Origin: a virus
Lineage: Duplodnaviria > Caudoviricetes
Length of the DNA: 29,380 nt
Reading direction: 5' to 3' (one strand)
IMG/VR virus record: IMGVR_UViG_3300030376_000734
Coordinates: 1 to 29,380 of that record
Below are positions 1 to 29,339 of the stretch, one piece after another. Each line of letters starts with the position of its first letter. The stretch's first letter is position 1. The translations under genes were made by a program, and so were the position numbers. The notes under the pieces are model-generated. The model did not search any database and had not been told where the DNA came from. It saw only the letters and a list, made by a program, of their open reading frames with translations.

Positions 1-720
1 AAGGTAGACGAAGAAAAACGTATGCTAGTTAGTCCTGCTTTAATACCTAACAAGCAGATATTTAGATATGATCCTAACACCGATTCAGATTACTATGTTT
101 TCTTTTCAAAAGCGACGGTAGCTAAAGCATCTGAATTATATTTAAAACATAACAATCACCATAAAGCTACTCACGAACACAACGAAAGAGTATCAGGAGT
201 TTTAACAGTTGAGAGCTGGATTAAAGAAGGCGATAGCGACAAGTCTAAGCTATACGGATTTGATTTGCCTAATGGAACTTGGTTTGTTAAAATGAAAATA
301 ACAAATGATGATCTATGGCAAAAGATAAAAGCAGGAGAATTAAAAGGATTATCAATAGAAGGATATTTTACTAATAAATTTGAGCAAATGCAAAAGAAAG
401 AATTTACGACAGAAGAAGTAAGAACTGCACTTAGAGAATTGTTAAGTGTTCAGAAGGTAGAGTTAGGATTAATTGATGATGTAAACAAAACATATAACGC
501 AATAAAAAAAGTTAAAGACAAAATGGATGATGATTTAGCTAAAGCAAAGCGTTCTGCAATTATAGGCGACACAGAAATACAGAATTTTAATAAATTAGTA
601 GGCGATGTTGAGAAAGCAGCAAAGGAATTAGGAATACCTGTAAGCGATATGAATTTACAAAAATTATCTAATGACATAAAAAGTTTCCAAAAAGACTTTA
701 ATACTGTAATAGAAGCATAA
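1..720 (+). CDS. Prohead protease, XkdF-like (5'-truncated at window edge), with variable C-terminal KELG domain, allele 1
   Basis: The frame is open from base 1 and matches the interior of 28006-28887. Motifs LVSPALIPNK, H..HN, VESW, GTWFVKMKI and GELKGLSIEG are typical of XkdF/S78-type phage proteases. Confidence 0.85.
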   Translation, partial: KVDEEKRMLVSPALIPNKQIFRYDPNTDSDYYVFFSKATVAKASELYLKHNNHHKATHEHNERVSGVLTVESWIKEGDSDKSKLYGFDLPNGTWFVKMKITNDDLWQKIKAGELKGLSIEGYFTNKFEQMQKKEFTTEEVRTALRELLSVQKVELGLIDDVNKTYNAIKKVKDKMDDDLAKAKRSAIIGDTEIQNFNKLVGDVEKAAKELGIPVSDMNLQKLSNDIKSFQKDFNTVIEA

Positions 721-733
721 AACATAAAATAAT

Positions 734-1099
734 ATGAAACCAACACCAGAACAAATACTAAGTGCTTTAAATAAAATGATAAGAGAAAGCAAAACTGAAC
801 TAAAAGCAGAAAAGGTTGAGTTGAATGCAGTTACAGATACAATAAAAAAAGCATCTAAAGTTGTAAGTCAAATAATGAAAAATGAAATGAATATTTTATC
901 TTTAGCTGATGATGCAGTAAGTAAAGCAGGTGAGTTAAATCAATATATTGCAAAATTTAAAGAATACGAACAAGCAGCAAAAGAATTAGGCGTTGATAAA
1001 GTTGCAAAAGAAGCATCTGAAGCAATTACACATTATACTGATAAAATAAAAAGAGCAGATAAAATGCTTTCACAAGTTAAATCAGCAATAAAAAGGTAA
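734..1099 (+). CDS. Head-locus protein: conserved 30-aa leader plus variable KELG helical domain, allele 1
   Basis: 121-aa ORF; first 90 nt identical to 28893-28982; the rest is unalignable except AAKELGV. Confidence 0.85.
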   Translation: MKPTPEQILSALNKMIRESKTELKAEKVELNAVTDTIKKASKVVSQIMKNEMNILSLADDAVSKAGELNQYIAKFKEYEQAAKELGVDKVAKEASEAITHYTDKIKRADKMLSQVKSAIKR

Positions 1100-1145: not shown

Positions 1146-1826
1146 ATGGACTTAAAAGAACAAATATTAGTAGCACTTGGCTTAAACAAAGCTGAAGAAG
1201 AAATTAAACTTGAGTGGCAATCTAAAGGAGTTGATGGCACGATTTATGTATCTACCGCAGAGGTGTTAGAAAGCGGCTCAGACATAAGCGTTCTCACAGA
1301 GGACGGAACTACAATTCCAATGCCAATCGGAACTTATAAAACTGAAGATGGTGTAAGCTTTAGAGTTGAAGAAGAAGGTGTAGTTGCTGAAGTTATGGAA
1401 TCTGAAACCGAAGAAGAAGTTGAAGCTGATTACGAGGATAAAGAAGAAATGGCAGAAGAGGCAGATGTTGCTGATTGGCAAGGTATGGAGAAAAGAATCC
1501 AAAACCTAGAAGATGCAGTAGCTTCTCTAAAAGAAGAAAAAGTAGGTGGTGATGATGAAGTAGAGGAAATGGCAGAAGAAGTAGTAGAGCCACGTTCTAC
1601 AAGTCCTAAGACTATAACTACTAAAGAGGTGGTAGAATTTTCAGCAGAAGATGAAATAAAGAACTTAAAAGCTGAAAACGAAAAACTTAAAACGGAATTA
1701 GCAGAATCACCTGCTGACAGTCCTTTAAACACAAATAAATTTAGCTCGGAAAAGCCTGTTATATCTAAAAAAGAATATAATAAACTTTCTAAGCAAGAAA
1801 AGTTTTTACATAACTTATACAATTAA
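1146..1826 (+). CDS. Capsid scaffolding protein
   Basis: Very acidic 226-aa protein with a coiled-coil C-terminal half and a repeated EEMAEE motif; lies between protease locus and capsid gene. Confidence 0.75.
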   Translation: MDLKEQILVALGLNKAEEEIKLEWQSKGVDGTIYVSTAEVLESGSDISVLTEDGTTIPMPIGTYKTEDGVSFRVEEEGVVAEVMESETEEEVEADYEDKEEMAEEADVADWQGMEKRIQNLEDAVASLKEEKVGGDDEVEEMAEEVVEPRSTSPKTITTKEVVEFSAEDEIKNLKAENEKLKTELAESPADSPLNTNKFSSEKPVISKKEYNKLSKQEKFLHNLYN

Positions 1827-4961: not shown

Positions 4962-6941
4962 ATGAAAGACAGATTAATTTCAGTAAATTTAGAAACAGCA
5001 ACTGCTCCAATAGTACAAGAGGTTAGGGGTCGTGATTATATAGAGTATGGAACAGAAGATTGGAGAAACTTATATCCTCAATTTCTTATTGACTTATACT
5101 ACAATTCATCAACACACGCTGCTATCATAAACGCAACTTCAGAAATGATTGCTGCTGAGGACTTAATAGTTTCAGATGAGGACACTAGCTTAGACGCTTA
5201 TGTTAAATTAAAGAAATTTCTAAGACACGCTAATTCTAAAGAGTCTTTGCACCAAGTGATTAAAAAAGTAGCATTTGATTTTAAGTTACAAGGAGCTTAT
5301 GCTTTGCACGTTGTATGGAATAGAGAGAGAACTGAAATAGCGGAAGTCTATCACGTTCCTGTTGAAAGAGTAAGAGCAGGACGACCAAACGAAATGGGCA
5401 AGGTAGACACTTATTTTATATCAGCAGATTGGAGTAATACTAGAACGCATAAACCTTATCCAATAGCAGCCTTTAATGTCAACGACAGGACTTCAGGTAG
5501 TCAGTTACTTTACACAGGCTCTTACAGCCCTAATATGGACTGCTATCATACACCTGACTATTTAGCTGCTTGTAATTGGGCTTTAGTAGATCAAAGAGTT
5601 GCTGAGTTTCATCTTAATAATATAGAGAACGGCTTTAGTGGTAGCTACTTCATCAGTTTCGCAAATGGAGTTCCTAGTGCGGAGGAGCGTAGGCAAGTAG
5701 AGCAAAGTTTAACAGATAAATTTACAGGAGCTAAAAACTCAGGAAAGTTTATATTAACCTTTTCAGATGATAAGACTAGAACACCTGAGATTACGCCTAT
5801 AAGCGTTTCTGACGCAGATAAACAATATTTAGCACTCCAAGAGCTTTTAGTTCAAAATATCCTCACAGGACATAGAGTAACAAGCCCTATGCTAATGGGT
5901 ATTAAAAACGACACAGGATTAGGATCAAATGTAGATGAGTTGAATGCAGCTTTTAATTTTTATCTCAATACAGTAATTATTCCGTTTCAGCTAAATATTA
6001 AAAATACATTACAAACTTTATTCTCAGTAAATGATATGGACTTGCCTGTGGAGTTTGTTCAGTTAAAACCAATTACACTTACGTTTACTTCTGAGGACTT
6101 AAAAGGAATTATGACGGAAGATGAACTAAGGGCAGAAATGGGATTAAAACCTTTAGATGTTGAAGTAAGAGAAGATTTCAGCAAAGTTGGAATGATTGAC
6201 GGAAAACCTGTTTTTAGCACCATAGAGGAGGCTGAGGCTCACGCAAAGACTTTAGGGTGTAGTGGGTATCACGAACACGAATATGAAGGCAGAACGGCTT
6301 ATATGGCTTGTGAAGGGCATACAGAGGCAACAGAGCTTTCTAAATTCATAGAAGAATTTGGCGAGGATATTCCAGAAGATTGGGAATTAATAGAAGAAGA
6401 AATAGTAGATGGGGAACACCAAGACTTTGACTTTGAGGAGGTTTTAAATGATGCTGCTAATGAAAAAATAGAGCTAGCTTCAACAGGTAGTCCAAAACCA
6501 GGAAGAAAATCAGAGCAAGATGGGATCTCTAAAAAGACTTATGATTATTTTAGAGTAAGATATGTTTACGAACAGGATAATTTCTTAGTAAATAAGTCAG
6601 GCACAAAAAGAAAGTTTTGCAGACAAATGATGGGTGCTAAAAAAATGTATCGTAAAGAGGACATTTTAGCTATGAGTAAAAAGGCAGTTAATCCTGGCTT
6701 TGGTATTAAAGGAGCAAGTAAATACTCAATTTGGCTCTACAAAGGAGGACCGCAATGTTTCCATTTTTGGACTAGGAGAATTTTCAAAACAGTAATAGGA
6801 GAATCTAGGACTACTAAAATAGAAGATGCTGATTTGATTGGCTACACTAAAGCAAGATCAGAAGGCTTTACAGCAAAGAAGAATGACAAATTGGTGGCAA
6901 TACCGCCTAGAAAAATGAAAAATAACGGATATTACAATTAA
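4962..6941 (+). CDS. Portal protein with long C-terminal extension
   Basis: YPQFLIDLYYNSSTHAAII, FHLNNIENGFS, KFTGAKNSGK, ILTGHRVTSPMLMGI and DELRAEMGL are portal-like; about 250 extra residues follow. Confidence 0.85.
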   Translation: MKDRLISVNLETATAPIVQEVRGRDYIEYGTEDWRNLYPQFLIDLYYNSSTHAAIINATSEMIAAEDLIVSDEDTSLDAYVKLKKFLRHANSKESLHQVIKKVAFDFKLQGAYALHVVWNRERTEIAEVYHVPVERVRAGRPNEMGKVDTYFISADWSNTRTHKPYPIAAFNVNDRTSGSQLLYTGSYSPNMDCYHTPDYLAACNWALVDQRVAEFHLNNIENGFSGSYFISFANGVPSAEERRQVEQSLTDKFTGAKNSGKFILTFSDDKTRTPEITPISVSDADKQYLALQELLVQNILTGHRVTSPMLMGIKNDTGLGSNVDELNAAFNFYLNTVIIPFQLNIKNTLQTLFSVNDMDLPVEFVQLKPITLTFTSEDLKGIMTEDELRAEMGLKPLDVEVREDFSKVGMIDGKPVFSTIEEAEAHAKTLGCSGYHEHEYEGRTAYMACEGHTEATELSKFIEEFGEDIPEDWELIEEEIVDGEHQDFDFEEVLNDAANEKIELASTGSPKPGRKSEQDGISKKTYDYFRVRYVYEQDNFLVNKSGTKRKFCRQMMGAKKMYRKEDILAMSKKAVNPGFGIKGASKYSIWLYKGGPQCFHFWTRRIFKTVIGESRTTKIEDADLIGYTKARSEGFTAKKNDKLVAIPPRKMKNNGYYN

Positions 6942-9668: not shown

Positions 9669-9956
9669 ATGGAGTTAATTTGCGAAGATTTCCATTTTTA
9701 TAATAATGGAATAATTTATAAAAACATTAGAACTTTATCACCACAAGGCTGGTTTGCTGACTTAGACAAAGTAGAGCCAAGTATTAGAATTTTTGGAACA
9801 AGAGATCAGATAGAAGAAGCCCTTGACACTTATATTGAAATGACAGGACTTAATCTTGATGAGTGTTTTAATTATGACAATGAAGAAGGGTTAAAGTTTT
9901 ATAAAAAAGAATACAAAAAACTAAATAATAACAAAGCATTAATAGCAACGATATGA
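9669..9956 (+). CDS. Hypothetical protein
   Basis: In frame with the track ORF 9618-9956; ATG 9669 follows the upstream stop. Confidence 0.7.
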   Translation: MELICEDFHFYNNGIIYKNIRTLSPQGWFADLDKVEPSIRIFGTRDQIEEALDTYIEMTGLNLDECFNYDNEEGLKFYKKEYKKLNNNKALIATI

Positions 9957-10441
9957 AAAAACTAGAAGATTTAACTAAAAACCTACATAAGGAAATACCT
10001 TATAAATGGAGAATACAATCAATTCAGTATAATAAAGCAACCTGTGTAGCTTATATAGATGCTAGGGATTGTATGGATATGCTTGATAAAGTAGTAGGAG
10101 CTGAGAATTGGCAAAGTATGTATTATACAGAAGATAATAAATTATTTTGTAGAATAGGTATTAAAGCAGGGCTAACTGATTGGGTATGGAAATCAGACAC
10201 AGGATCAGAATCTAATGTAGAAAAAGAAAAAGGTAAAGTGTCAGATGCTTTTAAAAGAGCTTGTGTTCAATGGGGAATAGGTAGGTTTTTATATCGACTT
10301 CCTATACAAAAGCTACAAACTAAAAAACATACTAACGGAAAAGAGTACGCTTATTCTCCTGAAAAAGATATGATAATATTTGATGGAGAAACTTTAACAA
10401 AGTATATAAATTGGAAACTTAATAATAATCAAAATAAATAA
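9953..10441 (+). CDS. sak: Rad52/Sak-family single-strand annealing recombinase
   Basis: AYIDARD..D.LD.VVG.ENWQ and KGKVSDAFKRACVQWGIGRFLY. Confidence 0.85.
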   Translation: MKKLEDLTKNLHKEIPYKWRIQSIQYNKATCVAYIDARDCMDMLDKVVGAENWQSMYYTEDNKLFCRIGIKAGLTDWVWKSDTGSESNVEKEKGKVSDAFKRACVQWGIGRFLYRLPIQKLQTKKHTNGKEYAYSPEKDMIIFDGETLTKYINWKLNNNQNK

Positions 10442-13275: not shown

Positions 13276-13632
13276 ATGCACAATCCAATTTATTCAAGTC
13301 AAGAGCATAAGCTGATAATTGAATCGTATATGACAATGTGCAAACAGTTCGCCCAAGAAGTTTCAACACAAGCAAGATACCACAATTACCTAGAGGTTAT
13401 AGATCTCATTACAGAGTATTCTAACGGCTATGGTGACGGTGTAAGGGAAAATAATTTTTATGATTGGATAATGATTATACCTATAAATTTATCAGTTGCA
13501 ACAGCAGGGTTTTTTGCAGGGATAGAAACAAAAACAAATGCTCCTGTTGTGAGAGCTTACAAGGTTGTGTTGGATCAGATGTTACAAGAAACAGTAGGTA
13601 AGTTAGATGAATTAGAACCGACTAATGACTGA
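13276..13632 (+). CDS. Hypothetical protein
   Basis: 118-aa ORF overlapping the sigma-like gene. Confidence 0.7.
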   Translation: MHNPIYSSQEHKLIIESYMTMCKQFAQEVSTQARYHNYLEVIDLITEYSNGYGDGVRENNFYDWIMIIPINLSVATAGFFAGIETKTNAPVVRAYKVVLDQMLQETVGKLDELEPTND

Positions 13633-14209
13633 AATCTATATTGAAATATCTAAGCTAACAGATAAATTTAGAACAATGGCTTATGGATTAACAACAGATG
13701 AAAACAAAGTAAATGAAGCAGTACAGGAATTACTCTTGTATCTACTCCAAGCAAACCCTGAAACTATTAAAAAAATATATGATAATGATGGTTTAGAAGG
13801 AATAACAAGGTATGGTGCAGTTGCTTTGAGAAGGGCGTTAAGAAGTAAAAGAAGTAATTTCTATTATAAGTATGAAAAGTATTATACACATATTGACAGC
13901 TTTAATAGTAACGTCAGTTACTCTAGCAATAATCTTGATTATGACTGGAATACTAATTATTATAAAAATATTTCTAATCTTCCGAATGAAGAAGTAGATA
14001 CTTACAAAATAGATAAGTTGGAATTAATTGACCAGAAGTTGGACAAGCTGGACTCTTGGTACGATAGGGAGTTATTTAAACTTTATTATTATGAAGGGAA
14101 TACGCTAGATTCACTCGCTGCTAAAACTAAGATAAGTAGAAATAGCTTATTTACAACAATAGATAAAGTAAGAACAATTTTAAAAAAAGAATTGAATGAA
14201 GATGTATGA
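13625..14209 (+). CDS. Sigma-70/ECF-like transcription factor
   Basis: Region-2-like AYGLT.D....EAVQELLL and region-4-like LDKL..YDRELFKLYYYEG.TL..LA..TKISRNSL...I.KVR..LK. Confidence 0.7.
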   Translation: MTEIYIEISKLTDKFRTMAYGLTTDENKVNEAVQELLLYLLQANPETIKKIYDNDGLEGITRYGAVALRRALRSKRSNFYYKYEKYYTHIDSFNSNVSYSSNNLDYDWNTNYYKNISNLPNEEVDTYKIDKLELIDQKLDKLDSWYDRELFKLYYYEGNTLDSLAAKTKISRNSLFTTIDKVRTILKKELNEDV

Positions 14210-26049: not shown

Positions 26050-27447
26050 ATGGCAGATAAAACAATAATAGAAGCTGAAGTAAAATCAAATGTAGGCGAA
26101 GTTACGGAAGAAGTAAATAAGCTAGACAAGGCAACTGATAAGGCAGCAAAAGATGGTTTTGGGGGAATGCAAAAAGCTATTAAAGGAGTTGGTGATGCAC
26201 TAAAAGCCGCAGGAATAGGTTTGGTTGTAGGTGCATTAGCTGCTTTTGCAGATGCTTTTAGACAAAATCAAAGGGTAATAGACTTTTTTAACACTACACT
26301 TAAAGCAACGTCAATTGCTTTTAGTGATTTATTTGTATTTATAGATAATAATTTTAAAACAATACAAGGATATTTAAAAGGATTATTTAGTGATCCTATT
26401 GGCGAACTTTTTAAACTAGGGCAAAGCATACAAAGATTTTTTATTGACAATCTAAGTGGTGTTGGTGAAATGTTAGGCGCATTAGGTAAGCTAATGATGA
26501 CAAACCCTATAACTAATCCTAAATTATTTGCAGAGAATTTAGCTAAAGTAGGACTTGCGGCAAGTGATGCAAAAAAAGAAATGACTGATATTTTTAATGA
26601 GATAACAAGTTCAGTTAAAGAATACACAAGTGGCATTATTGACCAGGCTTCAGCTATGGTTGAGTTAGACAAAAAAGCAGCATTAGCGGTTGCAAGGAAT
26701 CAAAAAATCCTTGAACAAAAAGATAGGGAAGCTGAGATCCAAAGACAAATAAGAGATGATGAAACAAACACTTTTAAAGTTAGAATTGAAGCTAACGAAA
26801 AGTTAAACCTTATTTTAGACGAACAGGAAAAATTAATGTTAGCTAATGCTAAAATAGTAAAAGAAGCTGCTAGGGCACAAAAAGATTTAACAAAAAATGA
26901 TGCTGATAGAATAGCTTTTATACAAGCAGAAGCTGAAGAATTAGCTATTTTAGCACAAATAGAAGGTTTTAGATCAGAGCAAAAAATAAACGCTATATCA
27001 CTTACAAAAGAAGAAAAAGCGGTAGCAGAGGAGAATACTGAAGCTCAATTAGCGGCTTATTCAGGGCTAGCTAAGTCACTAAGTGGACTAGCGGCTGACA
27101 ATAAAGAGTTAGCGGTAGCAGGAGCAATTATAGACACCTTTGCAGGAGCAAATAAAGCATTAAGAGAAGGAGCAGGAACACCACTTGGTTATATTAATGC
27201 AGCAGCTATTATAGCAGCAGGACTTGCTAATGTAAACAAGATAATGTCAGTAAATGTTGGCGGTGGAGGAGGAGGCGGTGGAGGAGGCGCACCTGCACCT
27301 AATACCCCAGCCCCACAAATGATGTCAGGAGCTTTTGATATGACAGGAGGACAAGCACCAGGAGCTATGAGGGCATTTGTAGTAACTGATGAAATGACCA
27401 ACAGCCAAGATCAACTAGCAAACATAAGACGTAGAGCAACAATTTAA
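26050..27447 (+). CDS. Tape-measure-like protein
   Basis: 465-aa Ala-rich helical/coiled-coil protein with hydrophobic segments and a Gly10-Pro linker near the C-terminus. Confidence 0.7.
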   Translation: MADKTIIEAEVKSNVGEVTEEVNKLDKATDKAAKDGFGGMQKAIKGVGDALKAAGIGLVVGALAAFADAFRQNQRVIDFFNTTLKATSIAFSDLFVFIDNNFKTIQGYLKGLFSDPIGELFKLGQSIQRFFIDNLSGVGEMLGALGKLMMTNPITNPKLFAENLAKVGLAASDAKKEMTDIFNEITSSVKEYTSGIIDQASAMVELDKKAALAVARNQKILEQKDREAEIQRQIRDDETNTFKVRIEANEKLNLILDEQEKLMLANAKIVKEAARAQKDLTKNDADRIAFIQAEAEELAILAQIEGFRSEQKINAISLTKEEKAVAEENTEAQLAAYSGLAKSLSGLAADNKELAVAGAIIDTFAGANKALREGAGTPLGYINAAAIIAAGLANVNKIMSVNVGGGGGGGGGGAPAPNTPAPQMMSGAFDMTGGQAPGAMRAFVVTDEMTNSQDQLANIRRRATI

Positions 27448-27451
27448 AAAT

Positions 27452-27480
27452 CAAATAAACTAACTAAAATTCTATTTAAT
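27452..27480 (+). promoter_or_regulatory. Putative phage late promoter for head operon
   Basis: CAAAT-N13-TTCTATTTAAT, 3 nt before ATG 27484. Confidence 0.65.
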
Positions 27481-27483
27481 AAT

Positions 27484-27996
27484 ATGCCTTGTAAGAAATG
27501 TAAAGACGAAAACTATAAGTATGGTAATACAGGAGAATGTAAGTATGCCACTAAAGAGGCTTGCGAAAAAGCTAATCCAAAAAAATATAGTAAAATGCAA
27601 CCAACACCACTAGGAAAAAAGACGTATGAAGAATACGAAAAAGAATTAAAAGAGTTTAATTTAAGTTCACAAAGGTTTGAATTTAATACACAAAAGGAGC
27701 TATTTGCATTACTTGATGAGTTTTGGAAAAATTTTGATAATGCAGTTTTGCCATTTGATAAAGTTGAAGGTGTCTTAAAAGGTATGATTAAAAGTGCTGA
27801 AAAGGCAAAATCAACTGCAAATGAATATATAAAAAAAGCTGAACAATTTAATAAGCAAATAAAAGAATTAGGAATTTCAGAAAAAGAGGCTAAAGCAGGT
27901 TCTTATATAAAACAAAAAAAAGAGGATATTAAAAGTGCTGATAACTGGATAAGAGTTATAAAGAAATTTATAGCTGATGCTAATAATGTAGATTAA
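27484..27996 (+). CDS. Head-locus protein: Cys-containing leader plus KELG helical domain
   Basis: MPCKKC...C...C leader ending LSSQRFEF, then a 103-aa helical domain with QIKELGI. Confidence 0.8.
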   Translation: MPCKKCKDENYKYGNTGECKYATKEACEKANPKKYSKMQPTPLGKKTYEEYEKELKEFNLSSQRFEFNTQKELFALLDEFWKNFDNAVLPFDKVEGVLKGMIKSAEKAKSTANEYIKKAEQFNKQIKELGISEKEAKAGSYIKQKKEDIKSADNWIRVIKKFIADANNVD

Positions 27997-28005
27997 AATA
28001 ATAAT

Positions 28006-28887
28006 ATGAAAGAAACTAAAATAGTAGAATTAGTAATAGCAGATGATAGTCAAGAACTAGCTATTGATGCTATTAGCTTAGTCAATTCTCCTGCAATAGA
28101 GCAGGACTTTGTATTCTTTGGTAAAGAGAAAAACAACTTGACTTTCGCTAAGGTAGATGAAGAAAAGCGTATGCTAGTTAGTCCTGCACTTATCCCTAAT
28201 AAACAGATATTTAGATATGATCCTAACACCGATTCAGACTACTATGTTTACTTTAGTCCTGATACAGTTAGAAAGGCTAGTGAGTTATATTTAAAACATA
28301 ACAACCATCACAAAGCTACTCACGAACACAACGAAAGAGTATCAGGAGTTTTAACAGTAGAGTCTTGGATTAAAGAAGGCGACAGCGACAAGTCAAAATT
28401 ATACGGATTTGATTTACCTAATGGAACGTGGTTCGTTAAAATGAAAATAGAAAACGAAGAACTTTGGCAAAAGATAAAAGCAGGAGAATTAAAAGGACTT
28501 TCAATAGAAGGTTATTTTACTAATAAATTTGAACAAATGCAAAAGAAAGAATTTACAACAGAAGAAGTAAGAACTGCACTTAAAGAATTGTTAAGTGTTC
28601 AGAAGGTTGAGTTAGGATTAATTGATGATATAAAAAAAGATTTGGTAGAAGCAGCCGATAAGCCAATGTCAAAAGCTATGGACTTATTAGGACAATCTAT
28701 AAAGTTAGTTAAACAAGCAGAAAGTAATACAAAAGCAGTAGGTAAAAATATAGATAAGGCAGAAAAACAAGCTAAAGAACTTGGAGTTGATATTCCTGAA
28801 TTAAAAGAATACACTGCTTTATATAAAAAAAATCTAAACTTTTTTAAACAAACTATCGCTGAAATTCAAAAAGCTAAAATATATTAA
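28006..28887 (+). CDS. Prohead protease, XkdF-like (complete), with variable C-terminal KELG domain, allele 2
   Basis: AISLVNSPAIE N-terminus, protease core through GLSIEG, then a 90-aa tail after KVEL. Confidence 0.88.
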   Translation: MKETKIVELVIADDSQELAIDAISLVNSPAIEQDFVFFGKEKNNLTFAKVDEEKRMLVSPALIPNKQIFRYDPNTDSDYYVYFSPDTVRKASELYLKHNNHHKATHEHNERVSGVLTVESWIKEGDSDKSKLYGFDLPNGTWFVKMKIENEELWQKIKAGELKGLSIEGYFTNKFEQMQKKEFTTEEVRTALKELLSVQKVELGLIDDIKKDLVEAADKPMSKAMDLLGQSIKLVKQAESNTKAVGKNIDKAEKQAKELGVDIPELKEYTALYKKNLNFFKQTIAEIQKAKIY

Positions 28888-28892
28888 ATAAT

Positions 28893-29306
28893 ATGAAACC
28901 AACACCAGAACAAATACTAAGTGCTTTAAATAAAATGATAAGAGAAAGCAAAACTGAACTAAAAGCAGAAAAGGTTGAGTTGGGTTTAGTTGATGATTTA
29001 AAAACAATTTTAAAATCAGCAGAAAAATATAAAAAAGAAAGTAAAGAAAATATTAAATCAGCAGAAGGGTTAAATAAACAATCTTTACAAATATTACAAA
29101 AACAAGAAGCTTTAGATAAGAAATTAAATAAAGCTGAAGATGATGCAAAAAAAACATACAATCAATTTAAAAAAGCTGCAAAGGAATTAGGTGTAAATGA
29201 TAAAGATAGTCCTGCTTTTAAAATTAATGAAGAAATATTATCAAATTTGTTATTATCAAGTAGAGAAGATGATGTAAAAAGTATTTTAACAATGAGATTA
29301 AAGTAA
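28893..29306 (+). CDS. Head-locus protein: conserved 30-aa leader plus variable KELG domain, allele 2
   Basis: 137 aa; leader identical to 734-823; contains AAKELGV. Confidence 0.85.
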   Translation: MKPTPEQILSALNKMIRESKTELKAEKVELGLVDDLKTILKSAEKYKKESKENIKSAEGLNKQSLQILQKQEALDKKLNKAEDDAKKTYNQFKKAAKELGVNDKDSPAFKINEEILSNLLLSSREDDVKSILTMRLK

Positions 29307-29310
29307 AAAT

Positions 29311-29339
29311 CAAATAAATAAATAACTATTCTATTATAT
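29311..29339 (+). promoter_or_regulatory. Putative phage late promoter (second copy of 1104-1132)
   Basis: Identical sequence. Confidence 0.7.

Follow-up and report, generated by a model that had tools for sequence, protein, structure and literature searches.

The stretch of viral DNA analysed here, referred to as the window (29,380 nucleotides), carries a phage genome of about 28.1 kb in circularly permuted form, with genes for a terminase, a portal, an XkdF protease, a scaffold-like protein, a capsid protein, tail proteins, and a Rad52-type recombinase. Between its tape-measure-like gene and its scaffold-like gene lies a set of cassette genes, in which a leader is followed, after a short junction, by an exchangeable C-terminal domain, the payload, that carries a KELG turn. 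The five open reading frames listed in an earlier note on this DNA (27484-27996, 28006-28887, 28893-29306, 1-720, and 734-1099) all exist as given there, and the payload sizes of 84-107 aa proved exact, with 103, 90, 107, 84, and 91 aa after the respective junctions. The K of the KELG motif falls exactly at 27862, 28774, 29181, 622, and 980, as recalculated from the turn offsets.

The cassette parts, the AT-rich element before slot 1, the scaffold-like gene, and the recombinase gene described below lie on the plus strand. The leader of slot 1 (27484..27684) is composed of a four-Cys mini-domain, a helix, and the junction RFEF, a variant of KVEL, and is followed by a payload of 103 aa with an N-terminal arm of 62 residues (27685..27996), whose class is also found fused to the protease in P0272. 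The four-Cys mini-domain (27484-27576) heads slot 1, and in many loci without this slot it is fused straight to the protease. Slot 2 resides on the prohead protease itself, an XkdF-type (S78_2) enzyme with an N-terminal pro-peptide (28006..28557) that matches PF14550 over aa 46-170 (E 2e-18; 66.8 bits against a cut-off of 24). Residues H108 and S166, which we take to be catalytic, are invariant in 37 sequences. A C-terminal helix (aa 185-198) and the KVEL junction (aa 199-203, non-helical in the AlphaFold model) occupy 28558..28614 and lead into a payload of 90 aa (28615..28887). This allele recurs at 82-100% identity on proteases that are 76-100% alike, behind several leaders, and is found at 93% in a stand-alone slot-3 protein. 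In slot 3, the leader (28893..28982) is a duplicate of the protease C-terminal helix that ends in KVEL, and the payload (28983..29306) comprises 107 aa with an N-arm of 69.

At the other end of the window, a second protease allele, cut at its 5' end (1..720), carries a different payload of 84 aa (466-720), and a second slot-3 allele (734..1099) carries a payload of 91 aa (824-1099) that is 62% identical to a protease-borne payload in L048. The following gene (1146..1826), assigned as a scaffold from its position before the capsid gene, encodes an N-terminal helix with an E[VI]K[LM] motif and many E[LFM][ASG] sites. A conserved AT-rich element, a putative late promoter, precedes slot 1 (27448..27476) and recurs before the scaffold at 29307-29335 and 1100-1128, giving three matches versus none expected by shuffling; under a strict pattern, it precedes the scaffold in 62 of 76 loci, but just 8 of 75 have it behind the tape-measure gene. 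The element may be read by the product of a gene at 13625-14209 that looks sigma-factor-like by eye and has no Pfam match.

The ends of the window overlap as two strains, or alleles, with 88% nucleotide identity over 1-489/28150-28638 and a second overlap at 96% that takes in the leader of slot 3 and the beginning of the scaffold gene; across the payload regions the two alleles do not align. All five payloads occur as exact contigs spanning both flanks in the marine run X1, possibly the source sample of the window, which indicates that the leader-payload joins are real; these contigs confirm single joins and do not tell which payloads belong to one genome. The runs listed as holding the stretch are mostly labelled marine or seawater, with no RNA dataset among them. 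The closest cultured relatives are the Nonlabens (Persicivirga) phages P12024L/S of the genus Inhavirus, with 40% identity in the protease, 24% in the capsid protein, and the same gene order. Since these relatives infect Nonlabens, the host is probably a member of the Bacteroidota; a search of genome collections returned five close matches, on contigs in unrelated MAG bins, and one weak match, and named no host. Unlike the window, P12024L/S have a 349-aa protease gene that leads to the capsid gene without a small gene between, and this region gave no cassette match at a threshold under which one weak true cassette also went undetected.

The five payloads had been regarded as unalignable apart from short motifs, but profile work aligns them as one family. 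A protease search retrieved 565 related IMG/VR stretches, and the best 80 of these yielded 161 payloads, including the five of the window; a recount added one in L048. At 50% identity, the 157 full payloads group into 84 classes; the distribution of pairwise identity has its peak at 25-30%, and only 11 of 12,246 pairs lie between 45 and 60%. A 60-member profile detected 246 short homologues among 5,288 candidates, and 54 of the 55 longer homologues carry the XkdF domain PF14550, the 55th being a shortened protease. In a representative library, 1,684 clusters (50% identity) matched at E<=0.001, generic coiled coils among them, and a strict pattern recognises both junction and turn in 136 of the best 150 of these matches. 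Another 46 loci came from a DNA pattern search; 24 of them represent a distant lineage (43-55% identity in the protease, 32-40% in the capsid protein) whose cassettes occupy the same position. The pooled set numbers 414 distinct payloads, which form about 209 classes including 144 singletons. At 50% identity, the near and distant lineages have just one class in common.

The number of slots is variable. In place of the three slots described earlier, the 71 of 80 loci that are complete from tape-measure gene to scaffold hold zero (5 loci), one (13), two (32), or three (21) cassettes, and three loci of the distant lineage have a further slot on the portal side, between tail tube and portal. These counts refer to intact cassettes (the third copy in L005 is a 24-aa stub) and to loci without dereplication, of which 65 of 71 are non-redundant, and slot combinations in metagenome contigs may be chimeric. 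The five empty intervals sit in two parts of the protease tree, and L134 is also empty; the contigs of the empty loci, which are 18-74% complete, show no cassette match elsewhere, and across the 71 loci there were no matches outside the interval from tape-measure gene to scaffold. L133 and L134 lie on one 36-kb contig with two protease alleles, one with and one without a payload, resembling the arrangement in the window. Repeated classes within a locus were absent (0 of 59), which is not significant as avoidance (P 0.35).

Exchange between slots and backbones is directly visible in the DNA. Among 38 multi-member classes, 19 are present in more than one slot, and ten cross-slot pairs have payload DNA that is 85-98% identical. 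This identity persists for about 15 nt upstream of the payload, drops to 27-47% at 30-60 nt in eight of the ten pairs, and stops at the stop codon; the swapped DNA therefore runs from the KVEL junction to the stop codon. Behind the payload stop lies either TAATATGAAA, which is common to the protease and slot-3 starts, or the conserved AT-rich element, and TAATATGAAA follows the stop in 61 of 85 cases with a near ATG. Leaders and payloads reassort: the same payload class is shared by only 4 of 46 protease pairs at 93-97% nucleotide identity and by 13 pairs below 88%. The earlier proposal that payloads swap wholesale while leaders stay fixed thus holds for the swap, but a given leader is conserved only inside its own lineage; across lineages the leaders differ, and only K[VI]EL with a small residue after it is general. 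A Rad52/Sak-type recombinase gene at 9953..10441 (PF04098, E 5.5e-12) is a candidate exchange engine, and Rad52-like phage recombinases are described as working on short, diverged homology (PMC3945230). Such an enzyme would likely drive exchange through the junction codons together with the shared stop-TAATATGAAA or promoter-like flanks. Two other routes to diversity were set aside: chimeras of N-arm and C-arm with a hot spot at the turn, as 14 examined of 100 discordant pairs were mostly indels and frameshifts, and integron- or DGR-type diversification, as neither an integrase nor a reverse transcriptase was found among the ORFs scanned. Taken with a common predicted hairpin fold, this slot swapping confirms the earlier claim of a diversifying cassette set that includes a protease-borne copy.

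Within classes, the payloads are subject to purifying selection, with a dN/dS of 0.17 (26 classes/pairs at >=75% identity); without the identity filter, dN/dS reaches 0.24 for core and 0.33 for exposed residues, pN is below pS in 29 of 32 classes, and no sign of positive selection on the payloads was detected. These values exclude junk, yet do not tell the payloads apart from the scaffold, whose dN/dS of 0.21 is no different from the payload range of 0.17-0.33. Three further observations are more telling than dN/dS, namely the deep discrete classes, the class-specific conservation of the surface, and a drop in depth. Within-class conservation is 0.65-0.71 for exposed and 0.74-0.81 for core positions, compared with about 0.1 between classes in the mid-arm. 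In four seawater runs from two studies, the contig depth over payloads, which sums all related phages and is not a copy number, lies about 10 to 1000 times below that of the flanks. Each allele is rare in seawater.

An AlphaFold model of the slot-2 payload forms a two-helix hairpin (helices 5-61 and 66-93, pLDDT 91), in line with the helical hairpin with a Gly turn that had been proposed. The turn had been called central and is off-centre, the N-arm measuring 51-145 aa and the C-arm 34 +/- 5 aa. The distance from junction to Gly equals 6 modulo 7 in 58 of 83 classes, and in 34 of 59 once the modal length of 62 is removed, so the long arm varies in seven-residue steps. The long arm displays a broad hydrophobic stripe, and its N-terminal part is unpaired, features suggestive of a partner or of self-assembly. 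Arm lengths of 62 and 34 residues make a three-helix antiparallel dimer conceivable; a covariation test for an antiparallel payload dimer gave a noisy signal. Several long variants (L090, L096, L100, L111, L114, L121, and others) combine an N-arm of 125-145 aa with a C-arm of about 20 aa and are accordingly no simple two-helix hairpins.

The origin of the leader can be traced to the protease. A slot-3 leader profile matches proteases at aa ~180-220 in 20 of 58 cases and none of 324 other structural proteins, and payload-less proteases end in the amphipathic helix that also begins slot 3, which indicates that the leader is a copy of the protease tail. Leader length is 12-36 aa in 129 of 136 profile matches. 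In both lineages, the protease pro-peptide and the first helix of the scaffold end in a [VIL]-x-[LFM] pattern that the junction shares; since none of 58 scaffold first helices matched the slot-3 leader profile, the likeness between scaffold and leader is architectural only. In a model of the full protease, whose core itself has low confidence, leader helix and payload are joined by the junction as a non-helical linker, also of low confidence. The motif E[LFM][ASG] is enriched 3.0-fold in 58 scaffolds (176 versus 58.5 in shuffled sequences), whereas capsid and tail-tube proteins stand at 1.0 and 1.15 and the interiors of 228 payloads at 0.76; the z-scores overstate certainty because the sequences are related, and two other motif definitions were less selective. 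Payload interiors without motif excess, together with the likeness of the junction to motifs at the protease pro-peptide end and in the scaffold, fit cutting at the junction and retention of the payload. In the tape-measure-like proteins (26050-27447 in the window), whose length ranges from ~456 to 613 aa, the putative cleavage motif is enriched 1.8-fold. The proposal that payloads are loaded into the capsid and released at the junction thus agrees with the copied leader, the shared motif, and the modelled flexible linker, a correspondence at the level of sequence and structure prediction.

The payloads form one helical-hairpin family that is unnamed so far. Pfam, PHROGs, and PADLOC scans of 60 payloads yielded scattered coiled-coil matches with at most 3 of 60 per family, and a single payload gave one weak match to an 'internal head protein' (E 0.0015); neither these scans nor the fold comparisons connected the payloads to a known anti-defence protein. 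PDB sequence searches returned designed bundles and generic coiled coils, Foldseek searches of PDB and viral structures gave nothing at E<=0.001, the ESM Atlas search gave no usable match, and the best VIA score (Z 9.4) fell among generic bundles. WXG100, ESCRT-III, small-terminase, and SerRS-arm hairpins are likewise two-helix antiparallel (Z 8-9.4), although these scores are below the level of kinship for helical bundles. A literature search, beyond whose reach lay subscription papers and supplements such as phage proteomics tables, found no description of the family.

The nearest functional parallel is offered by the internal proteins of phage T4, which are described as dispensable, basic, and targeted by pro-peptides of 10-19 residues, with IPI blocking a restriction enzyme (PMC9026906). 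The cassettes resemble IPI, IPII, and IPIII, as portrayed there, in a short N-terminal leader, a likely prohead-protease site, and a small, basic, and variable cargo that may also be dispensable. The T4 proteins, according to the same source, are divergent cargoes of a T4-like myovirus cut by gp21, with IPI having an alpha/beta fold, whereas the cassettes share one all-helical fold, comprise hundreds of alleles, occupy tandem slots within the head operon of a phage of 28 kb, include a copy on the protease C-terminus, and go with a [VI]-E-L site and an XkdF protease. The payloads showed no sequence similarity to T4 IPI, IPII, or IPIII. For MuF polymorphic toxins and polyvalent phage proteins, head-module genes are likewise reported in which a constant delivery part precedes a variable C-terminal part (PMC12226406, PMC5512222). 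Unlike them, the payloads are non-enzymatic hairpins behind a leader of 12-36 residues, without an enzymatic toxin domain, and the five cassette proteins showed no MuF match. The gene next to a cassette is another cassette, the protease, or the scaffold, with no adjacent immunity gene as in MuF systems. The C-terminal segment of HK97 gp4 reportedly has a proposed role in prohead targeting and is removed by self-cleavage. A C-terminal pro-peptide, likewise removed by self-cleavage, has similarly been proposed to target the SPN3US protease gp245 to the prohead (PMC7411985). In the present phages, unlike either case, a second copy of the tail helix serves as a free-standing leader, and an exchangeable folded domain comes after it. 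Judged by sequence, the cassettes appear to work like T4 leader cargo and to be organised like MuF systems, being homologous to neither.

The reading that we favour, with a probability of roughly 45%, is that the payloads are packaged, released, and delivered cargo with allele-specific host targets. In this scheme, the leader helix would load the hairpin module into the procapsid, the XkdF protease, a member of a family described as head-processing peptidases (PMC7824862), would cut the module free after [VI]-E-L, and the freed module is predicted to stay in the mature head; it would then reach the cell together with the DNA, and there each version may bind a different host protein, for example a defence component. 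The individual parts differ in strength: the leader is probably a packaging signal copied from the protease's own C-terminal helix, and cutting of the payload at the junction by the protease is likely to an equal degree; we lean towards survival of the payload in the mature head; and delivery with allele-specific action on the host, rare alleles being favoured, has slightly less than an even chance. Prohead proteases themselves are reported to trigger CBASS (bioRxiv 10.64898/2026.03.04.709575), so that the protease gene would be exposed to host immunity. A bolder form of the favoured reading, put forward tentatively, is a phage binder library in which one hairpin scaffold with hundreds of surface variants is recombined into up to three or four capsid-loading slots, one of them on the maturation protease, and injected early, each allele neutralising another host defence or receptor-linked factor.

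Packaging and release could also serve one generic job, the payload being a basic, self-assembling coiled-coil rod that aids DNA packing or ejection or stabilises the head, with diversity arising as variants evade host sensors that detect virion proteins, or through long drift and recombination. This explanation, which we consider possible though doubtful, accommodates the single fold, the heptad-quantised arm length, the positive net charge of 125 of 157 payloads, and a dN/dS like that of the scaffold, as well as exposed residues that across classes are generic K/E/D/S while the N-tip and turn stay constant, and T4 IPIII is reported to affect assembly rate and burst size (PMC9026906). It accounts poorly for class-specific surface signatures that hold across lineages with different leaders, for arm lengths from 51 to 145 aa, and for a copy number of 0-3 that is untied to tape-measure length (rho -0.01, 49 loci).

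The conserved turn reads E-L-G and could be a second cut site; the payload might instead be an accessory scaffold or core filler degraded at maturation, an idea that the location between protease and scaffold and the conservation of the turn K and E/D in ~93% of 288 payloads would suit. Nevertheless, this is unlikely, given that payload interiors lack the motif excess of the scaffold, that the turn E-L lies at a helix end in the model, that a KELGV loop also occurs in a designed helical bundle and can thus be purely structural, and that a degraded filler offers no reason for hundreds of maintained, mobile alleles. More improbable still is a selfish cargo that exploits the packaging helix and acts on co-infecting or superinfecting relatives, by exclusion or by spoiling foreign proheads: many related phages with different alleles do co-occur in single samples, and alleles cross backbones and leader types, but neither an immunity gene nor a membrane anchor accompanies the payloads, and exclusion proteins are usually early or membrane proteins. 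An assembly artefact or a chance likeness of low-complexity coiled coils, conceivable because the window joins two strains and leaders form shared nodes among co-occurring strains, is largely refuted by the exact bridging contigs, the synonymous differences between cross-slot copies, and the 136 of 150 top matches with junction and turn.

Further modules were observed in the same head genes. Distant-lineage proteases (L096:2934-3830, L103:2612-3742, L115, L121, and L102:3089-3964) bear another cargo-like module, ~90 aa long, which follows an EEL/KLE junction, contains an LLWGG motif, and has no Pfam match; in L102 it precedes a KELG payload. DUF3721, a small Cys/His domain, occurs below the Pfam cut-off on the portal of the window (6213-6320, aa 418-453) and on the protease tails of L101 and L103, which suggests further mobile head modules. 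The C-terminal extension of the portal (6460-6941), which has no Pfam match, begins after KIEL-A, a motif resembling the cassette junction, and includes a Cys/His motif.

These results expose a large unnamed protein family at a hypervariable spot among the head genes of phages that are common in marine and other aquatic settings. If the payloads are indeed delivered cargo, T4-style leader loading would extend to small phages with XkdF proteases, a testable cleavage rule would become available for this little-studied protease family, the alleles would provide a ready panel to screen against bacterial defence systems, and the leader of 20-30 residues would constitute a simple capsid-loading tag. 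If the binder-library form holds as well, this abundant group of aquatic phages would possess a combinatorial anti-defence repertoire built on a single fold.
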